Part shown: one piece after another, positions 34,596-59,848 of the stretch
Layout of the letters: every line of letters starts with the position of its first letter
Position numbering within the stretch: position 1 is the first letter of the stretch
NCBI GenBank assembly: GCA_016208765.1
Contig: JACQXK010000001.1
Coordinates: 218-64,217, forward strand
DNA length: 64,000 nt
Direction of reading: 5' to 3'
Origin: Candidatus Omnitrophota bacterium
Lineage (GTDB): Bacteria; Omnitrophota; Gorgyraeia; Gygaellales; Profunditerraquicolaceae
Notes under the pieces: generated by a model
The model's database searches: none
Told to the model about the DNA's origin: nothing
Seen by the model: the letters and a program-made list of their open reading frames with translations, nothing else
Program-made: the position numbers and the translations under genes

Positions 34596-35834
34596 ATGCG
34601 CAAAAAAAGGATCGTCATTACAGGCATAGGTGTGGTATCTCCGGTTGGCCTCGGGAAAGAAGCTTTCTGGCATAACCTTTGGGAAGGTAAGCCGGGATTC
34701 GGGCCAATCAGTCTTTTTGATACCTCTGACCTTAAGGTTAAGGTCGCAGGCGAGGCCTCTGGATTTAACCCCCAGGAAATATTGGGGAAAAGAGGTTTGA
34801 TTGACCTTGACCGCGCCACGACACTATTATTATCCGCCGCTAAGTTTTGCCTTCAAGATAGCCAAATAGATTTAGCTAATATCAACTCTCCGACTACCGG
34901 TATTTGTATCGGCACTACCTTCGGAAGCCTCAACAGCCTTTCTGAGTTTGACGAACAATCTCTTCAGGAGGGGCCAAATTTTGTTAATGCCTCCAGATTT
35001 CCTAATACCGTAATCAATTCCCCGGCGAGCCGCGCAGCAATCCGTTATGGAATTAAAGGGCCGAATACTACTGTTTCCACAGGTTTCTGCGCCAGCCTTG
35101 ATGCCCTGGAGCACGCGGTTGATACTATTAACGCCGGGCGTGCAGAGAGGATAATTGCTGGCGGGCTTGAAGAGATGTGTATCCAGACCTTTCTTGGTTT
35201 TTACAGGCTCGGGTATCTGTCCGGCCTGAAGAATAACTATGAGCCAACAAGCTGTCCTTTTGACAAGAGAAGGGATGGTATAATTTTCTCCGAGGGGTCT
35301 GGAGTTTTTCTGGTTGAGGAGTTAGATGCTGCGCTTAACCGCAATGCGCATATTTATGCTGAGGTTCTTGGTATTGGTTCTGATTTTGACCCGTTTCGTT
35401 TGCACAAATTTAATCCAAAGGCTCGCGGCATGATAGAGGCGATGCAGTTTGCCTTGGAAGACGCGGGCATTGATACAGGTAAAATTGATTGTATTTTTGC
35501 CAATGCCAATTCAACTCCAGACGGAGATTATGTTGAGGCGAGGGCAATCCGGGAAGTTTTCCAAAAGCAGGCAGATGAAGTTCCGGTAACTGCCGTAAAA
35601 TCTATTACCGGTGAGTCGTTTAGCGCAGGAGGAAGTTTTGCGCTTGCTGCTGCTTTAGGCACTCTTGAAACAGGGCTTATTCCTCCGATAGTTAATTTTG
35701 AACAGGCAGATGCAGCAAGCAGGCTTAATTTTGTAAGTGATTCGGCAAGGATGGATAATGTTGATAAAATTATGATTAATGCCTTTGGTCCGAATGGCGC
35801 AAATAGTTCTGTGGTAATAGGGAGATATTATTAA
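34596..35834 (+). CDS. beta-ketoacyl synthase-like protein with a degenerate catalytic triad (Cys retained, both His lost): CLF-like / non-decarboxylating partner
   Basis: KAS I/II thiolase fold. Active-site Cys present (TGFCASLDALEHA). The HGTGT His box reads ANANSTPDGD (H to N). The KSxxGH box reads KSITGESFSAGG (H to E). Confidence 0.8.
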   Translation: MRKKRIVITGIGVVSPVGLGKEAFWHNLWEGKPGFGPISLFDTSDLKVKVAGEASGFNPQEILGKRGLIDLDRATTLLLSAAKFCLQDSQIDLANINSPTTGICIGTTFGSLNSLSEFDEQSLQEGPNFVNASRFPNTVINSPASRAAIRYGIKGPNTTVSTGFCASLDALEHAVDTINAGRAERIIAGGLEEMCIQTFLGFYRLGYLSGLKNNYEPTSCPFDKRRDGIIFSEGSGVFLVEELDAALNRNAHIYAEVLGIGSDFDPFRLHKFNPKARGMIEAMQFALEDAGIDTGKIDCIFANANSTPDGDYVEARAIREVFQKQADEVPVTAVKSITGESFSAGGSFALAAALGTLETGLIPPIVNFEQADAASRLNFVSDSARMDNVDKIMINAFGPNGANSSVVIGRYY

Positions 35835-35835
35835 G

Positions 35836-36273
35836 ATGGCTTATCTTAATATTGAGCAGATAATGCAAAGTATTTCGCAAAGGTTCCCGATGTTGTTTGT
35901 TGACAGGATCATTGAGCTTGAGCCGGGAAAGCAGGTTACAGCGATAAAAAATGTAACGATGAATGAACAATTTTTTTCAGGGCACTTTCCGGATGCCCCT
36001 ATTATGCCCGGGACATTGATTGTTGAAGCAATGGCGCAGGTCTCAACTTTTCTTTTTTATAATCCCGAGGACCCTCATAAAAAACTTGATTTCTTTTTGG
36101 GTGTAATTAAAGATGCCCGTTTTTTTAGGCCTGTAGTTCCCGGTGACAAAATAAAGATTGTTGCCCAGAGTATCCGGCTGGCAGAAGATAGCGCATACGT
36201 TAAGGCAAGCGCAGTTGTTGAGGATGCAAAGGTTTGTGAGGCAGAGCTTGTATTCGTGCGGAGAAAGAAATGA
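35836..36273 (+). CDS. fabZ: FabZ-like 3-hydroxyacyl-ACP dehydratase (hotdog fold)
   Basis: …FFSGHFPDAPIMPGTLIVEAMAQV… catalytic His and hotdog motif. Confidence 0.85.
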   Translation: MAYLNIEQIMQSISQRFPMLFVDRIIELEPGKQVTAIKNVTMNEQFFSGHFPDAPIMPGTLIVEAMAQVSTFLFYNPEDPHKKLDFFLGVIKDARFFRPVVPGDKIKIVAQSIRLAEDSAYVKASAVVEDAKVCEAELVFVRRKK

Positions 36274-37481
36274 AAAGAATTGTTATTACCGGCCTTGGGG
36301 CGGTTACTTCTATCGGATTGGGATGGAAAGATTTCTGGGTTAACCTTTTAGAAGGAAGATCCGGTATTTCAAAGATAACGGTTTTTGATACATCAAGGCA
36401 CGTAACTCACGTGGGAGGCGAGGTAAAAAGTTTTCGCCCGGAAGATTTTATTCCAAGGGCAAAAATAAAATATATCGGCAGGGCTTCGCAATTGGCGATT
36501 GCCGCGACTAAAATGGCATTGGCTGATGCAAAACTGGAAAAAGAGCTTTATTCTGAGGTGAGGACTTCGGTTTGCCTTGGTACGACTATGGGAGAGATCA
36601 GGTCGGTGGAAACCGCGGATCATTCCTGGATTAATTCAAGTAAAGATAAGCATCAGATTGACCCTTTTGAGGTTTACCGTTCTTCGGTAAATAATATCCC
36701 CTCAAATGTAGCCATTGCGTTTCACTTAAAAGGAAGGAACCGTATTTTTACCACTGCCTGTGCATCAGGAAATTACGCTATTGGCTACGGGTTTGATCTT
36801 TTGCGTTCAGGAAAAACAGACCTTGTTGTTGCAGGAGGCGCAGATGCACTTTCTTGGATTGCCTTTACCGGTTTTAATAAAGTGAGCGCCACTGCTCCAG
36901 AAAGATGCCAGCCTTTTGACAAAAATAGATTAGGCATGATCCCCGGAGAGGGCTCGGGTGTGTTAGTGCTTGAGGATTTGGATTCTGCGCTTTTGCGGGG
37001 TGCGCCTATTTATGCAGAAATCTTAGGCTATGGTTTAAGCTGTGATGCCAATCATATGACCAATCCAAATCCCGAGGGGGTTGCTGCTTGCATGCGCAAT
37101 GCCATGCTTGATGCCGGAATAAAACCAAGAGATGTTGATTATATCAGCGCGCATGGCACTGGAACTATTTTTAATGATAGGACAGAGAGTGCTGCTATTA
37201 ACGAGGTTTTTGGCAAGCGTTCGGTAAAGGTGAGCTCAATTAAGTCTATGCTGGGCCATACCATGGGAGCGGCCTCGGCAATTGAGGCAATTGCCTGCTG
37301 CCTTGCCTTAAAAGACCAGGTGCTTCCTCCGACGATAAATTATGAAACTCCGGATCCGGAATGTGATATAGATTGTATTCCTAATGCCGCCAGAAAACAA
37401 AAAGTGGATGTGGTTTTGAACAATGGTTTTGCTTTTGGCGGGAATAATGCTTGTGTCGTGTTAAAAAGATTTACAACTTGA
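36270..37481 (+). CDS. beta-ketoacyl-ACP synthase II-like (catalytically complete)
   Basis: Cys (TACASGNYAIGYG), His (ISAHGTGT), Lys/His (KSMLGHTMGAAS), C-terminal NNGFAFGGNNACVVL. Confidence 0.85.
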   Translation: MKRIVITGLGAVTSIGLGWKDFWVNLLEGRSGISKITVFDTSRHVTHVGGEVKSFRPEDFIPRAKIKYIGRASQLAIAATKMALADAKLEKELYSEVRTSVCLGTTMGEIRSVETADHSWINSSKDKHQIDPFEVYRSSVNNIPSNVAIAFHLKGRNRIFTTACASGNYAIGYGFDLLRSGKTDLVVAGGADALSWIAFTGFNKVSATAPERCQPFDKNRLGMIPGEGSGVLVLEDLDSALLRGAPIYAEILGYGLSCDANHMTNPNPEGVAACMRNAMLDAGIKPRDVDYISAHGTGTIFNDRTESAAINEVFGKRSVKVSSIKSMLGHTMGAASAIEAIACCLALKDQVLPPTINYETPDPECDIDCIPNAARKQKVDVVLNNGFAFGGNNACVVLKRFTT

Positions 37482-37494
37482 AAAGGAGGAAGCG

Positions 37495-37746
37495 ATGTTA
37501 GAGAATTTAGAAATGGAATTTAAGGAGATGTTATCAAAATTAACCGGGCTTGAACCAACTGAAATCGGCGACGAGGATGATTTGTTTAAAGACCTGGGGA
37601 TTGATTCTTTAAAGGTTATTGAGATTGCCACGCAAATTGAACGTAACTACAAAGTTGTGGTAAAAGACAGCCAGTTGGCGCGCCTGCGTACAGTAAAAGA
37701 CGCGGTAACTTTTTTAAGGGACCTTTTGGAGAAAAAGAATGCCTAA
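37495..37746 (+). CDS. acyl carrier protein
   Basis: LGIDSLKVIEIATQIE phosphopantetheine attachment site (DSL). Confidence 0.8.
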   Translation: MLENLEMEFKEMLSKLTGLEPTEIGDEDDLFKDLGIDSLKVIEIATQIERNYKVVVKDSQLARLRTVKDAVTFLRDLLEKKNA

Positions 37747-39049
37747 GGAAAAAAGAATTGCCATTACCGGTATAGGCCCGCTTGCATCCATTGGCACGGG
37801 CCGTAAAGAATTGTGGCAGAATTTGCTCGCCGGTAAAACTAATATTAAACTTGATGAAGCTTATATTGGAGACGAGCTTTGGGATAAATATCATTTTCAC
37901 AAGGTTGACAATTTTGATATTTCCCGTTTCGGCCTTGACAGGGGCGCTTTGGATTGGATCAAAGACTGGAAGCAGGGTGATGAAATAAAGGATTTATTAT
38001 ATTTGTTAGCCGTGATCAAGCTTGCTATTGATGACAGTGGGTTAGTGTATAATCCAGATGCTGAAAGTGATTTCGGTTTGGTTTTAGCTCATGAAAATAT
38101 GGCGCTGATCCCGTTTTTATTTAAGGTCAGCGAAACTGCGTATAATCTCATGAGCGATAAATCAAAACAGCTTACAAAAAAGAAGTTTTACGACGAGGTT
38201 TATCGTCTTTGTCTTAAGGCTGGTTATGATGTTCAGCCGTTTATGACCTTGTTTCATGTGGCAAAAGTGTTTAATGTCAGGCAGCATTCTTTATTTATTT
38301 GTAATGCCTGTGCTTCGGGATTGTATGCTTTGGAAACCGCCAGTGAAATGATACATAGTAATCAGAATTCTTCGGTGATTGTTGCGGCTTCGGATTTTCC
38401 GGATATTTACAAGTATTTATGGTTTAGGGACCTGGGAATTTATTCTAAAGATGGGATTTGCCGGCCATTTTCCAAAGATAGTAACGGCCTTGTTTTTGGA
38501 GACGGCGGAGTCGCAATTGTTATGGAAGATATGGAACATGCAAAAAAACGCAATGCTCCCATATATGGTGAATATTTGGGCGGTGGTTTTGCTCTTGAAG
38601 GTTGGCAGGTCACTGTGCCAAAAGTCGGTAGTGATTCTTATCAGAACGCGATGTTAAAGGCCTTGGAGCAGAGCAAGGTAAAGAGAGAAGATATAGATTT
38701 GCTCTGCCCGCACGGAGTAGGCTCGCATGTTATTGATTATTATGAATCAAAGGCAATTACTGAGATTTTCGGAGACAACCCTAAAAAACCATTAATTACT
38801 GCTTTTAAGCCTTACGTCGGGCACAACTTGGGAGGCAGCGCTTTACTTGAAGCGGCGATTTTGCTGCTTTGTTTGAGTAATGACACGGTTTTACCCGCTC
38901 TTAATTCCAGCAATTCTAATCCCGCCTATAAAATCCAACTTGTTCAGCAAACAGCAAAAACCAGGCTTAAAACTGTAATGAAAGCTTGTGCTGCCTTTGC
39001 CGGATTCAATTCCGCAGTGGTGTTTGGGAAGGGTGATAGCCTTGTGTAG
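37739..39049 (+). CDS. divergent beta-ketoacyl synthase with Cys-His-His triad and an ~80-aa N-terminal insertion
   Basis: ICNACASGLYALETA (Cys), LCPHGVGSH (His), KPYVGHNLGGSA (His). The insertion between the first conserved block and the Cys loop has no clear family match. Confidence 0.75.
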   Translation: MPKEKRIAITGIGPLASIGTGRKELWQNLLAGKTNIKLDEAYIGDELWDKYHFHKVDNFDISRFGLDRGALDWIKDWKQGDEIKDLLYLLAVIKLAIDDSGLVYNPDAESDFGLVLAHENMALIPFLFKVSETAYNLMSDKSKQLTKKKFYDEVYRLCLKAGYDVQPFMTLFHVAKVFNVRQHSLFICNACASGLYALETASEMIHSNQNSSVIVAASDFPDIYKYLWFRDLGIYSKDGICRPFSKDSNGLVFGDGGVAIVMEDMEHAKKRNAPIYGEYLGGGFALEGWQVTVPKVGSDSYQNAMLKALEQSKVKREDIDLLCPHGVGSHVIDYYESKAITEIFGDNPKKPLITAFKPYVGHNLGGSALLEAAILLLCLSNDTVLPALNSSNSNPAYKIQLVQQTAKTRLKTVMKACAAFAGFNSAVVFGKGDSLV

Positions 39050-39179: not shown

Positions 39180-40466
39180 GTGATATTAAAGGCTAAGCCA
39201 ACAAAGGTTTTGATTATAACTTTGGCTTTAGCCTTATTTTTTTGTCTTTTTACTGCTTCTGCGTTTGCCGGCGCTCTTTCTATCCCCATGGTCGGCCCCT
39301 CAGCAGGCGGCTGCACTGCTAACTACCAGCAAATCTTCACCACTACCTTTAATGACTTAAGCGGCTGGCAGCATGTTAACTATGTCTACTTTGTAATTAA
39401 CACTACTGCTTCTGGCTCCAGCTGTTTTTATGGCTACTACAATCAGAATACCAACAAGCTCTATATTAAAAATGATGCAGGTAATGCTTGGTTAGGTGGA
39501 TTTGCTCCCGGCTCAAACAATCTAATTGAAAACTCTTATGTTAAGCTAAACTGCGCTCAAACTACAGTCTCAGGCTCAGGACAGACTATGTTTGTAAACT
39601 GGGCAGTAACTTTTAAGCCTCCTTTTGTCGGTACAAAAAATATGTATCTTTATGTCAGGGACGACTCTAATGCTTATCAGCCTCTTACTAAAAGAGGCAC
39701 CTGGACTATTCCTAACCATACCCCAACAATAGTATCAGTTATTCCTAATCAGGGAACCTCTCAACCTGAGCAAGCCTTAACCTTTACCACTATTTACCTT
39801 GATACTGATACCTGGATTAATATTAAGTATGTCTATTTCCGAATTAGCCCCTCTCTTACAGGTTTGACTAATTGCTTCTATGGCTACTATGACCAGGATA
39901 ACAACAAGCTCTACCTAAGAAATGACACTAACACAGCCTGGCTTGGAGGCTACACCCCCGGCTCAAACTATACTATTGAAAACTCTTATGCTAAATTAGA
40001 CTGCTCTAAGACAATTGTTACAGGAAATTCCGATACCTTAAGCATTAACTGGCAGATTATCCCTAAAACCACCTTTACCGGCACAAAGAACCTCTATCTT
40101 TATGTCAGAGATAACAATAATGCCTACCAAGGCTGGTTACAGAAGGGGACATGGAGTATTGATAATACAGATACTACTCCGCCGCAGATTACCCAGCTTA
40201 GCCCTGTGGATGCAAGCCGTATTTATGAAAATGCTTCTGTTGTTATTAAGCCAACAATAACTGATAACAATCAGTCTGCAGTTACTTATCAATTTTCTGT
40301 TGATGGAGTAGTTAAACAGGTTTGGTCAAGTAGTGCTACTTATAATTGGGTAAGTCCTTTAGCAGGTGCGCATACTATTAAGGCAGAAGCAAAGGATGAG
40401 GCCGGGCAGTCTATCAAAAGTGCTGAGGTATTTATCTTAAGAAAACCCATGGAAGTTGCAAATTAA
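39180..40466 (+). CDS. secreted protein with two tandem ~150-aa beta-rich repeats and a C-terminal Ig-like domain
   Basis: Signal peptide ending SAFAGA. Repeat 1 (…NYVYFVINTTASGSSCFYGYYNQNTNKLYIKNDAGNAWLGGFAPGSN…NMYLYVRDDSNAYQ…GTWTI) and repeat 2 (…KYVYFRISPSL…CFYGYYDQDNNKLYLRNDTNTAWLGGYTPGSN…NLYLYVRDNNNAYQ…GTWSI) are clearly homologous. GTG start; 6-nt gap to the RHS gene. Confidence 0.6.
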   Translation: MILKAKPTKVLIITLALALFFCLFTASAFAGALSIPMVGPSAGGCTANYQQIFTTTFNDLSGWQHVNYVYFVINTTASGSSCFYGYYNQNTNKLYIKNDAGNAWLGGFAPGSNNLIENSYVKLNCAQTTVSGSGQTMFVNWAVTFKPPFVGTKNMYLYVRDDSNAYQPLTKRGTWTIPNHTPTIVSVIPNQGTSQPEQALTFTTIYLDTDTWINIKYVYFRISPSLTGLTNCFYGYYDQDNNKLYLRNDTNTAWLGGYTPGSNYTIENSYAKLDCSKTIVTGNSDTLSINWQIIPKTTFTGTKNLYLYVRDNNNAYQGWLQKGTWSIDNTDTTPPQITQLSPVDASRIYENASVVIKPTITDNNQSAVTYQFSVDGVVKQVWSSSATYNWVSPLAGAHTIKAEAKDEAGQSIKSAEVFILRKPMEVAN

Positions 40467-50492: not shown

Positions 50493-51838
50493 ATGGAAAA
50501 ATACGATTACGACGCGATAATTATTGGAGCAGGGATTGGCGGGTTGGTCTGCGGCTGCTATCTGGCTAAGGCCGGCCTTAAGACGCTGATTGTGGAAAAG
50601 AACGCCCAGCCCGGCGGCTACTGTACTTCTTTCACCCGAAATGGATTCAGGTTTGATGCTTGTGCGCATTCGCTGGGGAGCTTGCGGGATGGTGGAATTC
50701 TAAAGGTGATATTGAAGGAATTAGATTTAGAGAATAGAATAGAATTTAAAAGAAGTAATCCTCAGGATACTATCATTACTATTGATGGTAAAATATCTTT
50801 TTGGAATGATTTAGGTAAAACAAAGCAAGAATTTTCTAGTAAATTTACTGATGAAAGAGCTAACATAGATAAGTTCTTTGATTTTATTGTTAATTGTGAT
50901 GCCGTGTCGTTTAATTCACTCAAGAAATCAACATTCTTAGATGTGTTAAACAAATACTTTAATAATGAGAAATTAAAATCAGTTTTATCATTGCCTGTTC
51001 TTGGGAATGCCGGATTGTCTGCTTCTAAAGCTTCAGCTTTTACAGCCATCGCTTTATTCAAAGAGTTTATGTTTGATGGAGGATATTATCCGGGAAGTAG
51101 CATGCAACAGCGTTTGTTAATAAAATAAAATTAAAAGATGACCGTGTTGATGGAGTAGAAATAAATGGCAGATATTTTAAATCTGGAAAGTATATAGTTT
51201 CTGATGTTGATGCAACTCAAACTTTCTTGGATTTGGTAGGTGAGAGGGTAATAGGAAAAGATAGTAAACAGAAATTAGCTTTATTAAAACCAGCTCATTC
51301 TATTCTTGTTTTATATCTTGGTACAGATGGAAAATTAAGCAACATGCCTATTGGTACCAACGTTTGGGCTATGCCTAATTATGATATTGAGAAGATGTAT
51401 TGTCTTGTAGATGATGGTGTAGTTGATGATTTAGATTGTTATTTATTGAGGTTAATGCCTGATAAGAAGAGTATGGTCATGCTTGTTAATGCTCCTTTTA
51501 AAGATAGTGATTTTTGGAGAGAAAACAAACAAAGGCTGATTGATAATTTTATAGAAAAGATTAAATTTGTAATTCCAGATATAAGAGAACGAATTGTATT
51601 TAAAGATGCAGCTACTCCTGCAACACTTTATAGATGGACATTAAACTATCATGGTTCTGCTTATGGTTGGGAAGGCGCTCCATCTCAGTTTCTGGTTAAC
51701 AGTTTTTCTCAGAATACTTTTATTGAAGGTTTGTATTTAACTGGTCATTGGGCAACTTTGGTGCAGGGAATTTCAGGAGTTACAAGATTGGGGAGAGATA
51801 CAGCTAGAATTATTATAAATAAAAGTAGAAGAAAATGA
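50493..51838 (+). pseudogene. CrtI/phytoene-desaturase-family FAD-dependent oxidoreductase split by a frameshift near 51105-51125
   Basis: N-terminal Rossmann YDAIIIGAGIGGLVCGCYLAKAG…EKNAQPGGYCTSF. The +1 frame continues without a stop (…FVNKIKLKDDRVDGVEINGRYFKSGKYIVSDVDATQTF…) into track ORF 51227-51838 (…GSAYGWEGAPSQF…). The shift lies in an A-rich run. Confidence 0.6.
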
Positions 51839-53928
51839 ATTTATTTGCAATAGCGGGTCTTTCTTGCGCGTTTTTTTGTTTAATACTATCTTTTATAGCT
51901 TTGATATTTGGAAAGGCTAAGATTCATAGGATCTTAGCCTTTTTTAATATTGCTGTTGCTGTGTGGGGGTTTGGTTTGTTTATGGTAGGAATTGCTTTTA
52001 ATGAAAAGCAAGCTATATTTGGTTGGAAATATGCACACATAGGGGGCATGTTTGTTTCAGTTCTTTTCTTTCACCTTGTTTGTTCATTTTGTGAAATAAA
52101 CAGGAGGTCATTATTACTATTTGGGTATTTTCAGGCTTTCGTCTTTAACTGGATTAGTTGGTTCCCCGATAAGTTAATAACTAATACTCGTTATGCGTAT
52201 GGGCTTTATTATAATGACACTACCTTCTTCTTTTTATTAGCAGCTTTATCGTATGTAATCTTAGTAATTGCTAGTTTTATTGAATTATTTAACTTTCTAA
52301 AGAAAGCTATTGGAAATAAGCGTTTGCAGGCAAAATATTTGATATTTAGTTTCTTTGTTGGGTTTTTAGGAGGTACGTCGACTTTCTTGCCTGAATTTAG
52401 AATAGATCTTTTTTATCCAGCAGGAGCTTTTGGTGTCGCTCTTTATGCTATAACTGGAACATATGTTATCCTTCGATATCGTCTTTTAGACTTGAATGTT
52501 GCCTTTACCCGGGCTGGCATATTTGGCGTTGTTTATGCTTTAGTTTTGGGAGTGCCTTTCTGGCTTGGCTATAAATACAACCAATGGCAATATTCTACGT
52601 GGATCATGCTAATCTTGGCTACGTCTGGGCCGTTTATTTACAGTTATTTGCGACGGCATGCAGAAGACATCATCCTTAAAGATCAACGCCGCTATCAGCA
52701 GGCGTTGCGCGAGCTTGCTGAAACCATGACTCACATCCGCTCTTTAGACGCATTGATCCAGATTATTACCACAACCATGGTTAACGCGGTTAAAGTGAAT
52801 TTTGCCGCGATGTATGTTAAGGAAGAAGAGAGCAATTCTTATGTTTTAAAAAGCTGTAATCCTCAGGATGTGCAGGATAAGTTTCCTGAAAATTTAGCCG
52901 TTGATTCAGCGTTTGTAAAATTTATTTCTGCCGAACAAAGGCTTGTAACCTGTGATGAAATTAAACATAAGCCGGATATTCTTTTGGAATGCGGTTTATT
53001 TATTCCGTGTTTTATGGAAAATGACCTTTTGGCATTTATCGCCTTGGGGACAAAACCAAACAGCCAGATGTTTACTACCGACGACATTCTTGTTTTTGAA
53101 ACCGTGTCTTACTCAGCAAGCCTTGCCATTGAGAACTGCCGTTTTTGGAGAGAGATTGAAGATAAACAAAGAAAGGCCCGCCTGCAAGAGATGGATACTT
53201 ATTCTTATTCTCTGGCGCATGAAATTGATAATCCCGTGCACATTATCCTTAATGAAACCACTTTAATTAAAGATTATCTTTTAAAGAATATCACAAATCC
53301 TCAGGAATACAAAGAAGCTGAAAGCGCGTGCGGTTTTACTATTGAGGCTGCCCGCAGAGTGGCTGGGATGGTTAAGGCTATCCGCGATTTTGGTTCGCCG
53401 GTAACCGGAAAGGCGCTGGCTTTAAAAATTGATGATGTTGTGGAGAGTTTTTTCAAGCTTTATTACCCTCAGTTTAAAGATAAGGCGATTGTTTTTGAGA
53501 AAACTTTTTCCGGGGATTTAGGTTTTATCCGCGGGATAAAGCCGGAATTGATGCAGGTATTGGTTATTTTAGCGAATAATTCTATTCATGCCATGCGAGA
53601 GGCTGAGTTAAAGAAGATCACGCTTAAAGTTGAACCGGTAAATCACGACAGGATCAGGATTATTTTCTCGGATACAGGTTATGGGATCAAGAAAGAAAAC
53701 TTAGAAATTATATTTTTGCCCTTTACTACTACCAAGGCCTCAAGTGAAGGCACAGGTATGGGCCTTTATAATGCAAAGAAAATTATTGAACGCCATAAAG
53801 GAAAAATATCTGCGCAATCTGATGGAAAAGGGCAGGGAGCCTGTTTTGTAATTGAGCTTCCCAAGGCGCTGGATGTTACAGAAGAGGAGTTCATAAGAGA
53901 GGGCCAGAAAGAAAAGAGATTGATTTGA
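51835..53928 (+). CDS. sensor histidine kinase: N-terminal 6-7 TM domain, GAF-like domain, HisKA and HATPase_c
   Basis: Polytopic N-terminus (~270 aa), GAF-like region (…IQIITTTMVNAVKVNFAAMYV…), H-box YSYSLAHEIDNPVH, and N/G1/G2 boxes (…NNSIHAM…DTGYGI…GTGMGLY…). Confidence 0.85.
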   Translation: MNLFAIAGLSCAFFCLILSFIALIFGKAKIHRILAFFNIAVAVWGFGLFMVGIAFNEKQAIFGWKYAHIGGMFVSVLFFHLVCSFCEINRRSLLLFGYFQAFVFNWISWFPDKLITNTRYAYGLYYNDTTFFFLLAALSYVILVIASFIELFNFLKKAIGNKRLQAKYLIFSFFVGFLGGTSTFLPEFRIDLFYPAGAFGVALYAITGTYVILRYRLLDLNVAFTRAGIFGVVYALVLGVPFWLGYKYNQWQYSTWIMLILATSGPFIYSYLRRHAEDIILKDQRRYQQALRELAETMTHIRSLDALIQIITTTMVNAVKVNFAAMYVKEEESNSYVLKSCNPQDVQDKFPENLAVDSAFVKFISAEQRLVTCDEIKHKPDILLECGLFIPCFMENDLLAFIALGTKPNSQMFTTDDILVFETVSYSASLAIENCRFWREIEDKQRKARLQEMDTYSYSLAHEIDNPVHIILNETTLIKDYLLKNITNPQEYKEAESACGFTIEAARRVAGMVKAIRDFGSPVTGKALALKIDDVVESFFKLYYPQFKDKAIVFEKTFSGDLGFIRGIKPELMQVLVILANNSIHAMREAELKKITLKVEPVNHDRIRIIFSDTGYGIKKENLEIIFLPFTTTKASSEGTGMGLYNAKKIIERHKGKISAQSDGKGQGACFVIELPKALDVTEEEFIREGQKEKRLI

Positions 53929-53931
53929 TCC

Positions 53932-53960
53932 TTGACAATCCAAGATTGCAATGTTATACT
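53932..53960 (+). promoter_or_regulatory. consensus sigma70 promoter for the abiEi-abiEii operon
   Basis: TTGACA (53932-53937), 17-nt spacer, TATACT (53955-53960). Confidence 0.55.
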
Positions 53961-53971
53961 TATTTCTGTAA

Positions 53972-53989
53972 GTAATCATTTATGATTAC
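53972..53989. promoter_or_regulatory. perfect palindrome GTAATCAT-tt-ATGATTAC between the -10 element and the abiEi start: candidate autoregulatory operator
   Basis: Read directly. AbiEi-type antitoxins are known to autorepress through inverted repeats in their promoters. Confidence 0.45.
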
Positions 53990-53999
53990 ATAGAGAAAT

Positions 54000-54638
54000 A
54001 TGAACTATACTCAATTTAGGCAAAAGTTTCAGGATGTCCCGCTAATCTTAAGCAAGAGCTTGTCTTTAAGCGGACTCGGGGATAAGCAAATGCAAAATCA
54101 GCTTATCCGTTGGCAGCAAAGGCGCCTCGTGATTAAGCTTAAGCGCGGATTGTATTTATTAAATGAAAGCGACCGTAAAGTTAACCCCAGCCGTTTTTAT
54201 ATCGCCAATCAACTGTATTCTCCTTCTTATGTCAGCCTTGAGTCAGCTTTGAGTTTCTACGAGCTTATCCCAGAGCGTGTTTTTGACATTACAAGTATTG
54301 CCACCAAGAAAACATCACGCTTTAAAAATGAGCTTGGGCTCTTTGTTTATCAACATATCAAGCCTGGTTGTTTTAGGGGATTTAAAGTGATTAAGGAAAA
54401 AGGTTCAGGTGGATTTTTGATTGCAGATCCGGAGAAGGCTTTGGTAGATTTTCTTTACCTGAATAGAAATAAGTTTAAGAGAAATGCAATAGGATTATTT
54501 AGGGATTCTTATCGTTTTCAGAATTTAGAGATTTTAAGCCCAAGAAAAATAAAATTCTTCGCCGGTATTTTTAATAACGATGAACTTGTTAAAGTAGCCG
54601 GAGAATTTTGTGCCTTTTTGCGCCAGGAGAAGGAATAA
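54000..54638 (+). CDS. abiEi: AbiEi-family type IV antitoxin / transcriptional regulator
   Basis: N-terminal AbiEi_4-like wHTH region (…LSKSLSLSGLGDKQMQNQLIRWQQRRLVIKLKRGLYLL…). Its stop overlaps the downstream NTase ATG (TAATG). Confidence 0.7.
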   Translation: MNYTQFRQKFQDVPLILSKSLSLSGLGDKQMQNQLIRWQQRRLVIKLKRGLYLLNESDRKVNPSRFYIANQLYSPSYVSLESALSFYELIPERVFDITSIATKKTSRFKNELGLFVYQHIKPGCFRGFKVIKEKGSGGFLIADPEKALVDFLYLNRNKFKRNAIGLFRDSYRFQNLEILSPRKIKFFAGIFNNDELVKVAGEFCAFLRQEKE

Positions 54639-55441
54639 TGTTGGATATTTTAAAGCAACAGCTTGGTGAAAATTTAGGCCCTGAAGAAAAATTAAACAGG
54701 GCGAGAGAATTTTTGCAGATTATCATCCTGAAGGTTATGTATGACAAGAATATTCTTAATAACCTTGCTTTCGTGGGAGGGACTGCTTTGAGGATACTTT
54801 ATAATTTAAAGCGTTTCTCCGAGGATCTTGATTTTTCGCTCATTAATAAGAAAAAGTATGATTTCAATTCAGTGAGCAGCGAGATAATCAAGGGTTTAAA
54901 ACTTTACGGTTTTGAGGCTGAGCCTGCGGTTAAGGCGGATAAAACCGTGCAATCTTCCATGCTAAAGTTCTCCGGCTTGTTAAAAGAGCTGGGAATATCT
55001 GCCCTTGGAAAACAAAAACTCGCTATTAAGATTGAAGTTGACGCAAACCCTCCGGCAGGGTGGCATATTCAGAATACCGTGGTAAACAAATCGTATATGT
55101 TTAATGTCGTACATTTTGATCTTTCTTCTTTGTATGCTACGAAATTGCATGCCTGTTTTTACAGAAAATTTACCAAAGGAAGAGATTTTTATGATTTTAT
55201 CTGGTATTTATCAAATAAGATAAAGCCGAATTTTACTTTTTTAAATAACGCAATTATACAAACAAGCGGTCATTTTTCAAAAATAAACGAACAAAATTTC
55301 AAAGCATTTTTGCTTGATAAAATCAGCGGAGTAGATTTTAATGCTGCAAGAAGAGATGTAGGGCGTTTTCTGGAAGATAAAGAAGAGCTAAAGCTGATTG
55401 ATTTAAAAATAATCCGTCAGGCCATAGAATCAGCGATATAA
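54638..55441 (+). CDS. abiEii: AbiEii-family nucleotidyltransferase toxin (DUF1814)
   Basis: Start set to ATG 54638 (MLDILKQQ…), coupled to the abiEi stop and preceded by AGGAGAAGGA. NTase motif AFVGGTALRILYNLKRFSEDLDFSL. Confidence 0.8.
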   Translation: MLDILKQQLGENLGPEEKLNRAREFLQIIILKVMYDKNILNNLAFVGGTALRILYNLKRFSEDLDFSLINKKKYDFNSVSSEIIKGLKLYGFEAEPAVKADKTVQSSMLKFSGLLKELGISALGKQKLAIKIEVDANPPAGWHIQNTVVNKSYMFNVVHFDLSSLYATKLHACFYRKFTKGRDFYDFIWYLSNKIKPNFTFLNNAIIQTSGHFSKINEQNFKAFLLDKISGVDFNAARRDVGRFLEDKEELKLIDLKIIRQAIESAI

Positions 55442-55459: not shown

Positions 55460-55852
55460 ATGAGCGATACAGCTTTAAAATTACTGGTGGTTGATGATGA
55501 GGAAGGTATAGTTGATTTTACTACAAGGATATATACCCGCAAGGGTTTTATTACCTTTGGGGCTACCGACGGGATAAAGGCGGTGGAGATATTTGAGAAA
55601 GAAAGACCCGATATCAGCCTAATTGACGTGCATATGCCTTATTCGCCGATTGACGGGATTGAGACTTTGAAGCGGATCAAAAATATTGATAAGAATGCGA
55701 TTTGTATTATGGTTACTCGTATTACCGAGCAGGATACAGTAGATGTTGCGCGCGGGTTTGGCGCAGATGCCTATGTGCTTAAGCCTCTTGAAATGGAAGA
55801 CTTGGACAAAGTAATTTCAGATGTAATTAAAAAGGTCCAGGAGGCTAAATAA
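55460..55852 (+). CDS. single-domain response regulator (CheY-like receiver)
   Basis: LLVVDDEE acidic pocket, phospho-acceptor in SLIDVHMP, conserved T/K (…MVTRI…YVLKP). Confidence 0.8.
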   Translation: MSDTALKLLVVDDEEGIVDFTTRIYTRKGFITFGATDGIKAVEIFEKERPDISLIDVHMPYSPIDGIETLKRIKNIDKNAICIMVTRITEQDTVDVARGFGADAYVLKPLEMEDLDKVISDVIKKVQEAK

Positions 55853-56644
55853 ATGGCCAATCCGCTTCCTGATGAAAAAGAGCTATATAAAAGAATTTAC
55901 AGAGAACGTATTTCTATGGATCCGCAGGTGTGGGATCTTTTGTACAATCGGGTTGGCGATGATATTACTACAATCAATCTTTTGTGCCAATTGCATCTGT
56001 GTGATTGTCAGCCGATCCCTGTGCAGGAGGCAAGAAAAATCCTTACTTACACCCGCCATATTAAAGAGCTGCTTTCTCGCATTACAAATATTTATGACGA
56101 TAATAAGAAAGTTTTTCCTGTGTTTGTCGGAACAGTTCCGCTGCATCCGGTTTTGCGAGAAATGTTTACCCATTATATAGGAAATGATGTTTATATGATC
56201 AATCTGATCGTTGAAGACGCCACTGATCCTATGCAGCCTGAACCGCTTTCTGTTGCCTCTACCCAGAAAATCCTTAATCATACTCGGAGTATCCGCGATT
56301 TTATGGATAAGCTCAGGCAGGCTACAATGCCGGGAGGAGATTATTCCTTTGAAGATGACCAGCAGGAGAAAAAAGAAAAACCAGGACTTGAATTAGAATT
56401 AACTAAAGAAGCTGTGCTTGCGCGTATTCGCAAGCTTTTTGCCCAGGAATTTAAATTTCCAGAAGAGAATATCCAAATGGAAACTCATTTTGCAAATAAT
56501 TTACAGCTTGATTCAGTTGACGCGATACGGGTGGTAATGATTCTTGAGGAAGGCTTTGGTTTTGAAATTCCCGACGATGATTATGAGGGGGTCGTTACGG
56601 TTGGCCAGGCAGTGGATTATGTGTTAAAAAGATTAAAAGGATAG
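55853..56644 (+). CDS. unknown two-module N-terminal domain fused to a C-terminal acyl-carrier-protein-like domain
   Basis: Internal ~45-aa duplication (…ITTINLLCQLHLCDCQPIPVQEARKILTYTRHIKELLSRI… and …VYMINLIVEDATDPMQPEPLSVASTQKILNHTRSIRDFMDKL…). C-terminal …FANNLQLDSVDAIRVVMILEEGFGFEIPDDDYEGVVTVGQAVDYV… is a canonical ACP four-helix signature with Ser in DSV. The ATG abuts the response-regulator stop. Confidence 0.6.
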   Translation: MANPLPDEKELYKRIYRERISMDPQVWDLLYNRVGDDITTINLLCQLHLCDCQPIPVQEARKILTYTRHIKELLSRITNIYDDNKKVFPVFVGTVPLHPVLREMFTHYIGNDVYMINLIVEDATDPMQPEPLSVASTQKILNHTRSIRDFMDKLRQATMPGGDYSFEDDQQEKKEKPGLELELTKEAVLARIRKLFAQEFKFPEENIQMETHFANNLQLDSVDAIRVVMILEEGFGFEIPDDDYEGVVTVGQAVDYVLKRLKG

Positions 56645-57239: not shown

Positions 57240-58487
57240 ATGGAACAAAATAAAAAAATTATCATTATAGGCGGGGGGCCGGCGGGGATGATGGCAGCTA
57301 TTCGTGCTGGCCAATTGCACCAGCAGGTGGTTCTTCTTGAGAAAAATGCAGGTCTTGGAAGAAAGCTTCTTTTAAGCGGCAAAGGAAGATGCAATTTAAC
57401 AAACGCCTGCAGTTTAGATGAATTCCTGGGGCACTTTTCCAAGAATGGCCAGTTTTTAAGGGATGCTTTTAAGAAATTCTTCAATCAGGATTTAATGAAT
57501 TTTTTTGAAGAAAGAGGCCTACCTGTAAAAGTTGAAAGGCAGATGCGCGTGTTTCCTGTGTCCGACAGGTCAGCCAGCATCCTTGATGTTCTGGAAAAAG
57601 AATTGATTAAGAATAATGTAGAGATAATTTTTAAAGCCAAAATAAAGAGTTTATCTGCCGTAGACAACAAGGTTAAAGGTTTATACTTGGCTGATGGCCA
57701 ATTTCTTCCGGCTGATAAAATAATTCTTGCCACCGGAGGCGTTTCTTTTTCGCTTACCGGGTCTACAGGAGATGGTTTTGAATTCTCCCGTAAACTGGGG
57801 CATACGGTTACTGCGTTTTCTCCGGGATTAGTGCCGTTAAAGACCGCAGATAAATTTGTTAAGAACCTTGAAGGCCTGACCCTAAAAAATGTTTTGATCA
57901 GGTTTTGTGACGGGAAAAGAGAAATTGTTTCGGATGTCGGAGAATTGTTATTTACTTTTTTCGGGATTTCCGGCCCCTTGGTTTTAGCTTTAAGCGGCAA
58001 AGTTGTTAATTGGTTGAAAGAAAATAAAAAAGTTCATGTTGAAATTGATTTGAAGCCCGGGTTATCAGAAGAGCAATTGAATAACCGCTTATTGCGTGAA
58101 TTTAGCAGTAATCCGAGGAAAAATATTAAAAATGTGCTAAAGGGTTTTTTGCCTTTGAGGATGGTTGATGTTTTTCTTGAAATTGCAAAAATTAATCCCG
58201 AGATCAGGGTAAATCAAATTAGCCGACAGGCTCGGGAGGGAATAACTAACCATTTAAAGGCTTTCCGGCTTGATATTGCCGGTTCGCTTCCTATTGAAGA
58301 GGCAATGGTTACCCAGGGTGGAGTTTTTTTAAAGGAGATTGACCCGCGCACTATGGAGTCGCGAAAGATAGATGGGTTATATTTTGCCGGTGAGATGATT
58401 GATGTTGACGCGGATACCGGAGGGTTTAATTTGCAGGCGGCATTTTCTACCGGTTATTTGGCAGGAGAAAGCGCTGCATTATCATGA
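57240..58487 (+). CDS. HI0933/BaiN-family NAD(P)/FAD-dependent flavoprotein
   Basis: GGGPAGMMAA dinucleotide-binding motif; family-typical C-terminus …GEMIDVDADTGGFNLQAAFSTG…. Confidence 0.8.
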   Translation: MEQNKKIIIIGGGPAGMMAAIRAGQLHQQVVLLEKNAGLGRKLLLSGKGRCNLTNACSLDEFLGHFSKNGQFLRDAFKKFFNQDLMNFFEERGLPVKVERQMRVFPVSDRSASILDVLEKELIKNNVEIIFKAKIKSLSAVDNKVKGLYLADGQFLPADKIILATGGVSFSLTGSTGDGFEFSRKLGHTVTAFSPGLVPLKTADKFVKNLEGLTLKNVLIRFCDGKREIVSDVGELLFTFFGISGPLVLALSGKVVNWLKENKKVHVEIDLKPGLSEEQLNNRLLREFSSNPRKNIKNVLKGFLPLRMVDVFLEIAKINPEIRVNQISRQAREGITNHLKAFRLDIAGSLPIEEAMVTQGGVFLKEIDPRTMESRKIDGLYFAGEMIDVDADTGGFNLQAAFSTGYLAGESAALS

Positions 58488-59848
58488 GAAAAATATATTT
58501 AGCAAGTGATTCAAAGGCGCGCAGAAAACTTTTTCGTATTTTTGGCTTAAAATTCCAGGTAATTCCAAGCAGGATTAAAGAGAAAGTGCTGACCGGAAAG
58601 TTATCTTTTGCCGCTTTAGCCAAACATAACGCATTGTTAAAAGCTAAAGCAGTCAGTCAGAAAATAAAAAGCGGAGTTGTTGTTGCCGCTGATACAATAA
58701 TTGTGCAGGATGGAAAGATTTTTGGAAAGCCAAACTCATTAAAAGATGCTAACTCAATGCTTAAAAAGCTTTCTAAAAAACCGCAGCAGCTTTATACTGG
58801 TTTAGTAGTGATTGATAAAGACAGCTCAAGAATAAAAACTTCAGTTGAAAAGACAAAAATTTACATGGATAAAATAAGCGACTCTGAAATAAGAAATTAT
58901 TTTAAGAATGTTTCCCCTCTGGATAAGGCAGGAAGTTTTGATATTCAGGGACAGGGGGCATTTTTTATCCGGCGGATTGAAGGTTGTTTTTATAATGTGG
59001 TGGGTTTGCCGCTACGTCGGTTGTATCTTATGTTCAAGGATTTAGGGATAAAGGTGTTTATGTTACTGGTTTGCGGCGCGGGGTTCGCGGCGTGCGTTTT
59101 TATTTCTGGATGCTCTACTGAATATAATGTTGTTACAGGGCAGGAAGAAACCTATTATTATTCTACTGATAGCGAGGAGAAAATGGGCCAGGCAATTGCC
59201 AAGCAGGTTGAAAAAGAATACAAAATGACTAATGACCCTTTGGTGCAAAAGCGGGTTGAAGATATTGGTAAGAAAATTGCTGCAGTTTGTGACAGAAAAG
59301 AAATTGATTATAAATTTAATGTGATAGAAGACGAAGAAGTAAATGCTGTTTCGCTTCCCGGCGGGTATGTTTATGTGAATAAGGGGCTGGTTGATAAGGT
59401 TGCTAATGACGACGAGCTGGCCGGAGTCCTGGCGCATGAAGTCGGGCATATTGTGGCGCGCCACAGCATAAAAAAATTACAGGCGATCCAGGGTTATTCA
59501 ATTTTGCGTATTTTGGTGGCGGCTGTGCCTTCAGGAGAAGCTGGAAGCGCAGGGCAAGCAGCAGATGCGGCATTTACCGAGGTAATGCTTGGTTATTCAA
59601 GAGAGGATGAGCTTTTAGCAGATCAATTGGCTGTCCGTTATTCCAAGGCAGCCGGGTATAATCCACATGCAATGATAGATTTTTTGAAAAAGCTTGAAGA
59701 AATAAATCGCCGAAAGCCTTTGCGGCCGAGGTCATATTATAAAACTCACCCTTATGTTCCTGATCGCATCAGGGTTGTGAAACAGGAATTGGGAGAGAAA
59801 ATAGGTTTTGACGACTATATAAATATTGAACAGACACCGCATAAATAA
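58484..59848 (+). CDS. maf: Maf-like nucleotide pyrophosphatase domain fused in-frame to an M48-family zinc-peptidase lipoprotein (possible internal start at 59060)
   Basis: Residues 1-192 are Maf (…LASDSKARRKLF…VVAADTII…GLPLRRLYLMFKDLGI). With no stop, the frame runs into MLLVCGAGFAACVFISGC, a lipoprotein signal with a lipobox whose ATG at 59060 is preceded by AAGGTG. An M48 domain with HEVGH follows (…LAHEVGHIVARH…). Confidence 0.55.
   Translation: MRKIYLASDSKARRKLFRIFGLKFQVIPSRIKEKVLTGKLSFAALAKHNALLKAKAVSQKIKSGVVVAADTIIVQDGKIFGKPNSLKDANSMLKKLSKKPQQLYTGLVVIDKDSSRIKTSVEKTKIYMDKISDSEIRNYFKNVSPLDKAGSFDIQGQGAFFIRRIEGCFYNVVGLPLRRLYLMFKDLGIKVFMLLVCGAGFAACVFISGCSTEYNVVTGQEETYYYSTDSEEKMGQAIAKQVEKEYKMTNDPLVQKRVEDIGKKIAAVCDRKEIDYKFNVIEDEEVNAVSLPGGYVYVNKGLVDKVANDDELAGVLAHEVGHIVARHSIKKLQAIQGYSILRILVAAVPSGEAGSAGQAADAAFTEVMLGYSREDELLADQLAVRYSKAAGYNPHAMIDFLKKLEEINRRKPLRPRSYYKTHPYVPDRIRVVKQELGEKIGFDDYINIEQTPHK

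Follow-up and report, generated by a model that had tools for sequence, protein, structure and literature searches.

Two-component systems act in the great majority of cases through transcription factors, c-di-GMP enzymes or motor switches. Within such systems, helical proteins that handle phosphoryl groups include the relay intermediates Spo0B (Bacillus), ChpT (Caulobacter) and the HPt group (Ypd1, LuxU, the ArcB HPt domain), as well as receiver phosphatases, which use a helix-borne amide (E/DxxT/N in HisKA, DxxxQ in CheZ, ExxN in CheX). Acyl carrier protein (ACP) serves as a metabolic signal in the E. coli ACP-SpoT pair and in mitochondrial acyl-ACP-LYR-motif systems, where a helical or regulatory protein senses whether it is in its holo or acyl state. 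Here we analyze a 64,000-nucleotide stretch of a Candidatus Omnitrophota genome (contig JACQXK010000001.1; hereafter the window), in which the gene for a stand-alone CheY-like receiver (REC) is followed immediately by a gene encoding a 263-residue protein that ends in an ACP domain. We use N-dom for the N-terminal ~160 residues of this protein and for the domain family homologous to it.

By analogy, the 263-residue protein would work most like a Spo0B, ChpT or HPt relay intermediate or a CheZ-type phosphatase; the hidden Markov model (HMM) and fold tests that we ran assign it to none of these families. As in Spo0B, ChpT and HPt, N-dom is a predicted helical four-helix bundle with a conserved helix-borne His, and its gene is flanked by that of a stand-alone receiver on one side and those of further receivers on the other, 3' of a non-hybrid kinase. 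A single-hairpin N-dom would dimerize as Spo0B and ChpT do, and the duplicated N-dom would be monomeric like HPt. Unlike these proteins, N-dom has no HMM similarity to HisKA, HPt or Spo0B and no remnant CA domain; its motif is H-x-x-G-N-D instead of HxxKG or H-E-x-x-T/N-P; it is found fused to ACP, PAS-GGDEF-HD-GYP or REC-REC; it is nearly exclusive to Omnitrophota; and its phosphotransfer is putative. CheZ and Spo0E offer a further parallel, as helical-hairpin four-helix bundles acting on single-domain receivers, with helix-borne amide or acid residues and a terminal tether peptide, but N-dom has no sequence or Foldseek similarity to them, and its invariant His is unneeded in those families. 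The likeness to ACP-SpoT and acyl-ACP-LYR signalling is conceptual and would lie in the coupling of signalling to fatty-acid synthesis: those systems use a free housekeeping ACP with a TGS-domain or three-helix LYR partner, whereas here the ACP is fused to, or encoded beside, a two-component-type module. We found no sequence or fold relation to LYR or TGS domains, and no earlier case in which an ACP is joined covalently to a two-component module.

A duplicated helical domain joined to an acyl carrier protein

The receiver gene and its partner comprise the following features.

55460..55852, + strand: stand-alone CheY-like receiver, 130 residues, PF00072 match
55839..55843, + strand: Shine-Dalgarno-like GGAGG within the 3' end of the receiver gene and 9 nt 5' of the ATG of the 263-residue open reading frame (ORF)
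55853..56644, + strand: 263-residue ORF (N-dom, linker, ACP) directly after the receiver
55853..56092, + strand: N-dom repeat 1, residues 1-80, from the AlphaFold2 model, hhalign and alignments
56114..56332, + strand: N-dom repeat 2, residues 88-160, a hairpin of helices 99-123 and 134-158 with the family signature
56168..56188, + strand: H-box-like motif T106-H107-Y-I-G110-N111-D112, from conservation and alignment with the kinase H-box
56333..56401, + strand: linker, residues 161-183, variable, charged and modelled with low confidence (predicted local distance difference test, pLDDT, < 50 at residues 167-181)
56402..56644, + strand: AcpP-type ACP domain, residues 184-263 plus stop, PF00550
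56513-56515, + strand: Ser221 (LDSVD), the phosphopantetheine site predicted from sequence

The stop codon of the receiver gene abuts the start codon of the longer gene, the junction reading GCT AAA TAA/ATG GCC (55850-55855); both ORFs and their junction are as the first-pass annotation of this stretch had described them. The receiver matches PF00072 at 75.8 bits, against a Pfam cut-off of 30.2, and its acid pocket, as read from the translation, is intact (D12, D13, D56, T86 and K108).

N-dom is internally duplicated. Residues 1-86 align with residues 87-178 by BLASTP at E = 7e-9, and profile-profile comparison of the two repeats in hhalign gives a probability of 98.5% (E = 3.5e-15). The first-pass annotation had recognized this duplication, as modules of ~45 residues; the repeat unit is longer, a complete helical hairpin of ~65-80 residues that begins 5' of the peptides quoted there and includes VWDLLYNRVGDD / LREMFTHYIGND. 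The AlphaFold2 model of N-dom, built from a 47-sequence alignment (pLDDT 85.7; predicted template-modelling score, pTM, 0.80), is a four-helix bundle, with a short helix (8-17), two hairpins (24-49/57-78 and 99-123/134-158) and a disordered loop between them. Repeat 1 consists of the N-terminal peptide MANPLP.E, the short helix and the hairpin of helices 24-49 and 57-78, and the His and Asn have been lost from its degenerate H-box (YNRVGDD). Because only repeat 2 keeps H107-x-x-G-N111-D112, the predicted bundle amounts to a pseudo-dimer formed by a single chain, in which one of the two sites is intact.

The most conserved N-dom positions across ACP-fused, stand-alone and other-fusion members are W27, H107, G110, N111, D112, I116, F150, L154 and T158. 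Within these three groups, respectively, H107 is present in 100, 92 and 100% of members, N111 in 100, 98 and 78%, and D112 in 100, 95 and 89%; the equivalent His and Asn are invariant in homologues with a single repeat. C45 and H69 are 99-100% conserved in the ACP-fused clade only. The N-terminus M1-A2-N3-P4-L5-P6-x-E8 (55853-55876) is near-invariant throughout the family, even at 30-40% overall identity, suggesting a functional terminal element, for example one for partner tethering or processing.

As the first-pass annotation had stated, the N-terminal domain fits no family: searches of Pfam, NCBIfam, PDB sequences and, with Foldseek, PDB structures gave no relative. Pfam returned no N-dom match for the window protein, for 47 full-size members or for 23 single-repeat members. 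NCBIfam, searched with the whole protein, returned ACP models on the C-terminal part only and nothing credible for N-dom, and the N-dom profile searched against all PDB sequences produced only noise (hydroxynitrile lyase, E = 0.59; an AhpD-like 'peroxidase-related' protein, E = 1.4). The second of these hits had raised a CMD/AhpD thiol-redox lead, which found no support and was dropped. A STAS or anti-sigma-antagonist identity, named at first pass as a possible refutation, was likewise discarded: N-dom is predicted to be all-helical and has no STAS HMM match.

An Omnitrophota domain family with varied partners

A word-indexed homologue search recovered ~67 full-length proteins (N-dom plus ACP, 250-275 residues) and ~50 N-dom-only proteins of ~160 residues, and an identical protein is on deposit from a Candidatus Omnitrophica metagenome-assembled genome (MAG). 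Exhaustive profile searching of 1.84 billion representative proteins yielded 139 N-dom clusters. An artefact of gene fusion or annotation is ruled out by the 69 full-length clusters that conserve the architecture. On GTDB one-genome-per-species contigs we located 28 N-dom loci, all in Omnitrophota MAGs save four in bins labelled Planctomycetales/Planctomycetia and one in a 'bacterium'. N-dom is a small, undescribed domain family that is essentially confined to Omnitrophota.

Some members consist of N-dom by itself or of one repeat; others are fused to ACP, to REC-REC or to PAS-GGDEF-type domains, and in others again the N-dom gene is followed by a separate gene for ACP. Single-repeat members are 85-110 residues long, share the N-terminus MANPLPNE.. 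and have the core motif W-x-L-x-x-H-H-I-x-N-D. They match both N-dom repeats at > 99.8% in hhalign; being lone hairpins, they would have to dimerize to build the same bundle. The N-dom-REC-REC fusion (P0145) occupies the position usually taken by the N-dom gene, and other members join N-dom to PAS-PAS-GGDEF-HD-GYP, PAS-GGDEF-PilZ or PAS arrays. N-dom is a signal-transduction module that is combined with varied partners, and it is the conserved signalling unit of the family. The 125-residue product of a gene 5' of one GGDEF fusion was considered as a hidden receiver and rejected, since it is not a receiver.

Six single-repeat variants (L031:6001-6330, L032:6001-6336, L033:452-772, L034:1460-1783, L035:6001-6330 and L036:232-552) carry a conserved hydrophobic insertion of ~25 residues in the hairpin loop, with the consensus PxWILKFASFxIKFLYKxSxQPG. 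This segment could be amphipathic or membrane-associating.

A conserved kinase-receiver-N-dom gene order

We compared gene context in 79 non-redundant N-dom loci, 70 of them informative for an upstream receiver and 66 for downstream receivers. A stand-alone receiver is encoded immediately 5' of N-dom in at least 63 of the 70 loci; the spacing between the two genes ranges from about -41 to +55 nt overall and is mostly -4 to +20 nt in the 32 loci measured. Upstream of the receiver gene in the window is a kinase gene.

51835..53928, + strand: sensor histidine kinase with HisKA_7TM, GAF, DHp (H-box AHEIDNP) and HATPase_c, by Pfam

A HisKA_7TM-GAF-HisKA-HATPase kinase of this kind precedes the receiver in nearly all sufficiently long loci. 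No receiver domain was detected in the cassette kinases examined, which are therefore not hybrid kinases. Either REC-REC or two single receivers are encoded within two genes 3' of N-dom in 24 of 66 loci; the order receiver, N-dom, REC-REC, like the N-dom-REC-REC fusion, looks relay-like.

Two further genes recur or stand out in these contexts. An HTH_3-Cupin_2 gene on the opposite strand is found repeatedly just after the REC-REC genes of the cassette, and this regulator could be a transcriptional arm of the signalling system.

L004:9245-9823, L015:7560-8204, L022:7252-7854, L027:7286-7873 and L037:7269-7835, - strand: HTH_3-Cupin_2 genes

At L040:995-3859, a receiver fused to a glycogen/starch phosphorylase is encoded directly 5' of an N-dom-PAS-GGDEF-PilZ gene; like the receiver-FabF fusion described below, it joins a receiver to an enzyme in this phylum.

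The ACP domain and its pairing with N-dom

The C-terminal ACP reported at first pass, with its Ser in DSV, withstood an HMM check: residues 191-257 match the PP-binding family PF00550 at 40.3 bits (cut-off 20.8). Its scores against the NCBIfam equivalog models all fall just below cut-off (TIGR00517, 59.4 against 70.45; NF002148, 64.4 against 71; NF002150, 64.0 against 66), and by sequence the domain is a PP-binding family member and not a housekeeping AcpP equivalog. The closest solved relatives are the mitochondrial complex-I ACP (53 bits), Aquifex AcpP (52) and E. coli AcpP (46). AlphaFold2 predicts the ACP helices at 185-200, 221-235 and 250-262, with pLDDT ~80-89, and the full-length model shows it as a domain of its own beyond the low-confidence linker. 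The C-terminal 80 residues resemble AcpP and mitochondrial ACP in their HMM matches, DSxD serine and acidic helix II; they differ in falling below the equivalog cut-offs, in being tethered to a signalling domain and in the loss of the Ser in ~10% of the family.

ACP is the commonest partner of N-dom and is fused to it in 25 of 56 complete full-size genes. In seven further loci a separate AcpP-like ACP gene comes directly after N-dom, whether full-size (L052, L065, L076, L081) or single-repeat (L027, L093, L094); these ACPs are of the same type as the fused ACP and have a basic N-terminal extension resembling the linker. That the pairing recurs in fused and split form argues for a real functional link. 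Among fused forms, 60 of 67 retain the phosphopantetheine Ser, and the other seven have P, T, A or L at this position. The ACP is accessory to N-dom and not obligatory.

One N-dom-ACP clade, represented by P0069 (L007:508-1308) and P0076 (L016:6001-6801), has a strongly diverged ACP-like domain that has lost the serine (FDLPA), and in both loci the next gene encodes a secretin. L016 belongs to the same MAG as L009, the source of a 94%-identical relative of the window protein, so serine-less and serine-bearing N-dom-ACP paralogues coexist there.

A weak resemblance of N-dom to the DHp hairpin of its cognate kinase

The N-dom motif THYIGNDVYMINL shares H-box spacing with AHEIDNPVHIILN of the cognate kinase. 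Both have the His, Asn at +4 and hydrophobic residues at +2, +6 and +9, together with an I-[KR]-[DE]-F-type pattern in the second helix. They differ in that the acidic residue at H+1 becomes Tyr or His in N-dom and the Pro at H+5 becomes Asp, and in that no ATP-binding domain follows N-dom: HATPase_c is absent 3' of it, its place being taken by a linker and ACP, by nothing, by REC-REC or by PAS-GGDEF. With HPt, N-dom has in common only the predicted four-helix-bundle topology; it has no Pfam hit to PF01627 and has H-x-x-G-N-D where HPt has HxxKG.

Aligned in hhalign with the DHp domains of 17 cognate kinases, single-repeat N-dom places His on His at P = 7.5e-4, and under relaxed settings the second helices of N-dom and the kinase DHp also fall in register. 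When the whole kinase alignment was scanned with a sliding window, the H-box window scored P ~1e-3 and the window at DHp helix 2 P ~0.01, all other windows lying at P > 0.09. Column shuffles of the N-dom alignment reached the observed score in 0 of 620 trials, and in 1 of 200 for repeat 2. We regard this similarity as specific and weak, a lead toward a DHp-like hairpin and not family membership.

Lipid-type genes beside the cassette

Lipid-type genes recur 5' of the cassette kinase in relatives of the window. Two such elements are present in the window itself.

50493..51838, + strand: CrtI/phytoene-desaturase-family flavoprotein (Pfam), directly 5' of the kinase, two ORFs here
34596..39049, + strand: KS(FabF-like)-FabZ-KS-ACP-KS cassette (KS, ketosynthase), syntenic with L006, L015 and L070

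A CrtI-family flavoprotein is encoded 5' of the kinase in the window and in L006, L009, L015, L016, L026, L070, L083 and L085. Also 5' of the kinase, L006, L032 and L091 have an acyl-ACP-reductase-like gene, L027 has a 'male sterility' fatty-acyl reductase and L037 an HMG-CoA reductase. A receiver-FabF fusion (L004:3188-4792; also L018 and L079) exceeds the NCBIfam equivalog cut-off for FabF (KAS II; 555.7 against 493.75 bits) and is followed by ACP and a 4HBT thioesterase, directly 5' of the 7TM kinase. This arrangement suggests direct phospho-control of a condensing enzyme.

KS-ACP-KS cassettes adjoin the signalling genes in L006, L015 and L070. The 263-residue protein had been described at first pass as far from the KS cassette, which is true of the window, where ~11 kb including a 2285-residue ORF separate the cassette from the desaturase-kinase-REC-N-dom-ACP genes, and untrue of these three relatives, where the cassette abuts the signalling genes; the contiguity there makes the distance in the window a local accident. 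The intervening interval holds the 2285-residue ORF (40473-47330) and, 5' of it, a gene for a Big_7-domain protein (39180..40466). We rejected the fused ACP as the carrier of the KS cassette: cassettes have their own ACP, and in the window this protein (37495..37746) is 21% identical to the fused one. Distinct, cassette-specific ACPs are also present in L004, L006 and L015.

A candidate phosphorelay component and its alternatives

The reading we favor, tentatively and at somewhat short of an even chance, is that N-dom is a DHp-like, receiver-directed phosphotransfer module, working through His107 in a kinase-REC-N-dom-REC-REC relay that the AcpP-type ACP couples to acyl-lipid enzymes. The 263-residue protein would be the third component of an Omnitrophota cassette composed of a 7TM-GAF kinase, a single-domain receiver, N-dom and, often, REC-REC. 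N-dom would dock onto the phosphorylated receiver encoded just 5' of it; His107 would take the phosphoryl group, as in a phosphotransferase that lacks a CA domain in the manner of Spo0B or ChpT; and N-dom would pass the group on to REC-REC or to other receivers. The linker-tethered ACP would tie this relay to the acyl-lipid enzymes encoded beside the cassette by either of two routes: the holo or acyl state of the ACP may gate the bundle, or the relay may control access of the ACP to KS and FabF-type partners. A more specific and improbable form of the first route is an acyl-ACP-gated relay node, in which the tethered ACP, loaded by the neighbouring KS or FabF-type enzymes, would open or close the His107 face according to its holo or acyl state, such that the acyl-ACP pool would set the flow of phosphate from the 7TM membrane-sensing kinase to downstream receivers, including the receiver fused to FabF.

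A relay component fused to ACP would show that phosphorelays can act directly on the machinery of lipid synthesis; the context that supports this here is the receiver-FabF fusion, KS cassettes, desaturases and acyl reductases encoded beside a 7TM kinase. Were the acyl-ACP-gated form true, the system would be a purely post-translational lipid homeostat and would parallel, in a bacterium, the acyl-ACP/LYR signalling of mitochondria. Should N-dom prove DHp-like, a kinase hairpin would have evolved into a single-chain, pseudo-dimeric phosphotransfer module. N-dom is in addition a new signalling domain outside Pfam, with a W...H-x-x-G-N-D signature, single and duplicated forms and several fusion partners, that is readily testable biochemically, and it opens a route to function in Omnitrophota, a phylum that is uncultured and in which very few regulatory systems have been annotated.

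Several observations weigh against the favored reading. The hhalign probability for N-dom against the kinase DHp is only 26%, and the H-box likeness was spotted first and tested afterwards. No HisKA, HPt or Spo0B HMM matches full-size or single-repeat members; the Pfam HisKA model (PF00512) touches 1 of 23 single-repeat members, at E = 0.17, and 0 of 47 full-size members. Foldseek comparison of the N-dom model with the PDB returns generic four-helix bundles (best E = 0.36, TM <= 0.5), among which an HPt structure ranks 43rd (E = 1.9). The full-length model has a pTM of 0.59, against 0.80 for N-dom alone, and no confident packing between domains. No more than about a third of loci (24/66) encode, 3' of N-dom, a receiver that could take over the phosphoryl group. 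N-dom-PAS-GGDEF-HD-GYP fusions have no adjoining receiver in two of three contexts examined, which fits a sensor or dimerization role better. The core mechanism cannot depend on the ACP, which is absent from more than half of the family and has lost its serine in 7 of 67 fused forms. Finally, we found no literature on the N-dom family or on the N-dom-ACP architecture.

Somewhat less probable than phosphotransfer, in our view, is that N-dom is directed at the receiver without accepting its phosphoryl group and serves it as a dedicated phosphatase or adaptor, on the principle of CheZ, Spo0E or the DHp phosphatase motif. The peptide MANPLPNE..ELY would then tether the phosphorylated receiver, and the N111 amide, aided by D112 and H107, would hold the hydrolytic water in place; in another version, binding of the phosphorylated receiver would simply switch the attached ACP, GGDEF/HD-GYP or REC-REC. 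Receiver synteny fits this model as well as it fits a relay, the invariant Asn at H+4 corresponds to the phosphatase-critical T/N position of the HisKA H-box, the near-invariant N-terminus recalls the N-terminal CheY-binding peptide of FliM, and the model accounts more easily both for fusion to enzymatic outputs and for the absence of a downstream receiver in two thirds of loci. Yet HisKA-type DHp phosphatase activity has no need of the near-absolutely conserved His, the N-dom-REC-REC fusion and the REC/N-dom/REC-REC gene order look like a relay, and neither Foldseek, PDB nor Pfam searches detected similarity to CheZ, Spo0E, CheC or CheX. Polar His, Asn and Asp residues conserved on a bundle helix are also compatible with a sensory bundle that binds a metal, haem, redox cofactor or ligand through H98, H107, N111 and D112 (with C45 and H69 in the ACP-fused clade), receiver adjacency then reflecting co-regulation instead of direct phosphochemistry. 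We think this unlikely. Its attractions are the N-terminal, typically sensory position of N-dom in PAS-GGDEF-HD-GYP and PAS-GGDEF-PilZ proteins, two of three contexts of which lack an adjoining receiver; the weak Foldseek matches to cytochrome b562-type, designed metal-binding and chemoreceptor or kinase sensor bundles; and the clade-specific conservation of C45 and H69. However, repeat 1 has lost its His and Asn while keeping the fold, a free-standing cytoplasmic sensor domain would be unusual beside a receiver in ~90% of loci, the specific H-box similarity is left unexplained, and PDB sequence and Pfam searches gave no match to hemerythrin, cytochrome b562 or another sensor family.

The first-pass annotation had proposed a signalling-coupled acyl or peptidyl carrier whose loading or partner interaction is controlled by phosphorylation. 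Spelled out for this locus, the protein would be primarily a biosynthetic acyl carrier for the neighbouring KS/desaturase pathway, with N-dom as a docking or regulatory appendage through which the phosphorylated receiver would control loading or choice of partner. Two parts of this proposal stand: the coupling to signalling, in the receiver/N-dom pair, and a recurrent acyl link, in the genuine AcpP-type ACP with its mostly retained Ser, the nearby KS cassettes and receiver-FabF fusion, and the persistence of the ACP partnership as a separate adjoining gene. Its carrier-first emphasis is not supported, and we give the model as a whole little credence. The conserved unit is N-dom; over half of its members lack an ACP yet keep the kinase and receiver context, and N-dom is also fused to receivers (REC-REC) and c-di-GMP enzymes (PAS-GGDEF-HD-GYP) that are unrelated to acyl carriage. 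Moreover, KS cassettes have their own distinct ACP, seven fused members have lost the Ser, and in the window the desaturase gene is frameshifted and the KS cassette lies 16 kb away.

Local state of the window

The kinase and receiver genes of the window are separated by a further cassette.

53930..55432, + strand: AbiEi-like/AbiEii toxin-antitoxin cassette, ORFs 54000..54638 and 54608..55441, PF08843 at 94 bits

This type IV cassette of 1.5 kb sits exactly between kinase and receiver and is not in the 85%-identical locus L009, where the kinase directly abuts the receiver; it is an insertion and not part of the signalling system. A promoter scan found a strong promoter-like site within it (53932-53960), from which the receiver and N-dom-ACP genes may now be transcribed. 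Apart from this site 5' of the toxin-antitoxin cassette, promoter and terminator scanning was uninformative, and Rfam had no match in window positions 48-60 kb. The CrtI-like gene upstream of the kinase is interrupted by a frame switch at ~51107-51116 (tblastn) and is either a pseudogene or the product of a MAG assembly error; its L009 orthologue is intact, with 468 residues and an NCBIfam crtI_fam match. Downstream, a single ORF at 58484-59848 encodes an unusual fusion of a complete Maf nucleotide pyrophosphatase (residues 3-186) and an M48 peptidase (253-434).

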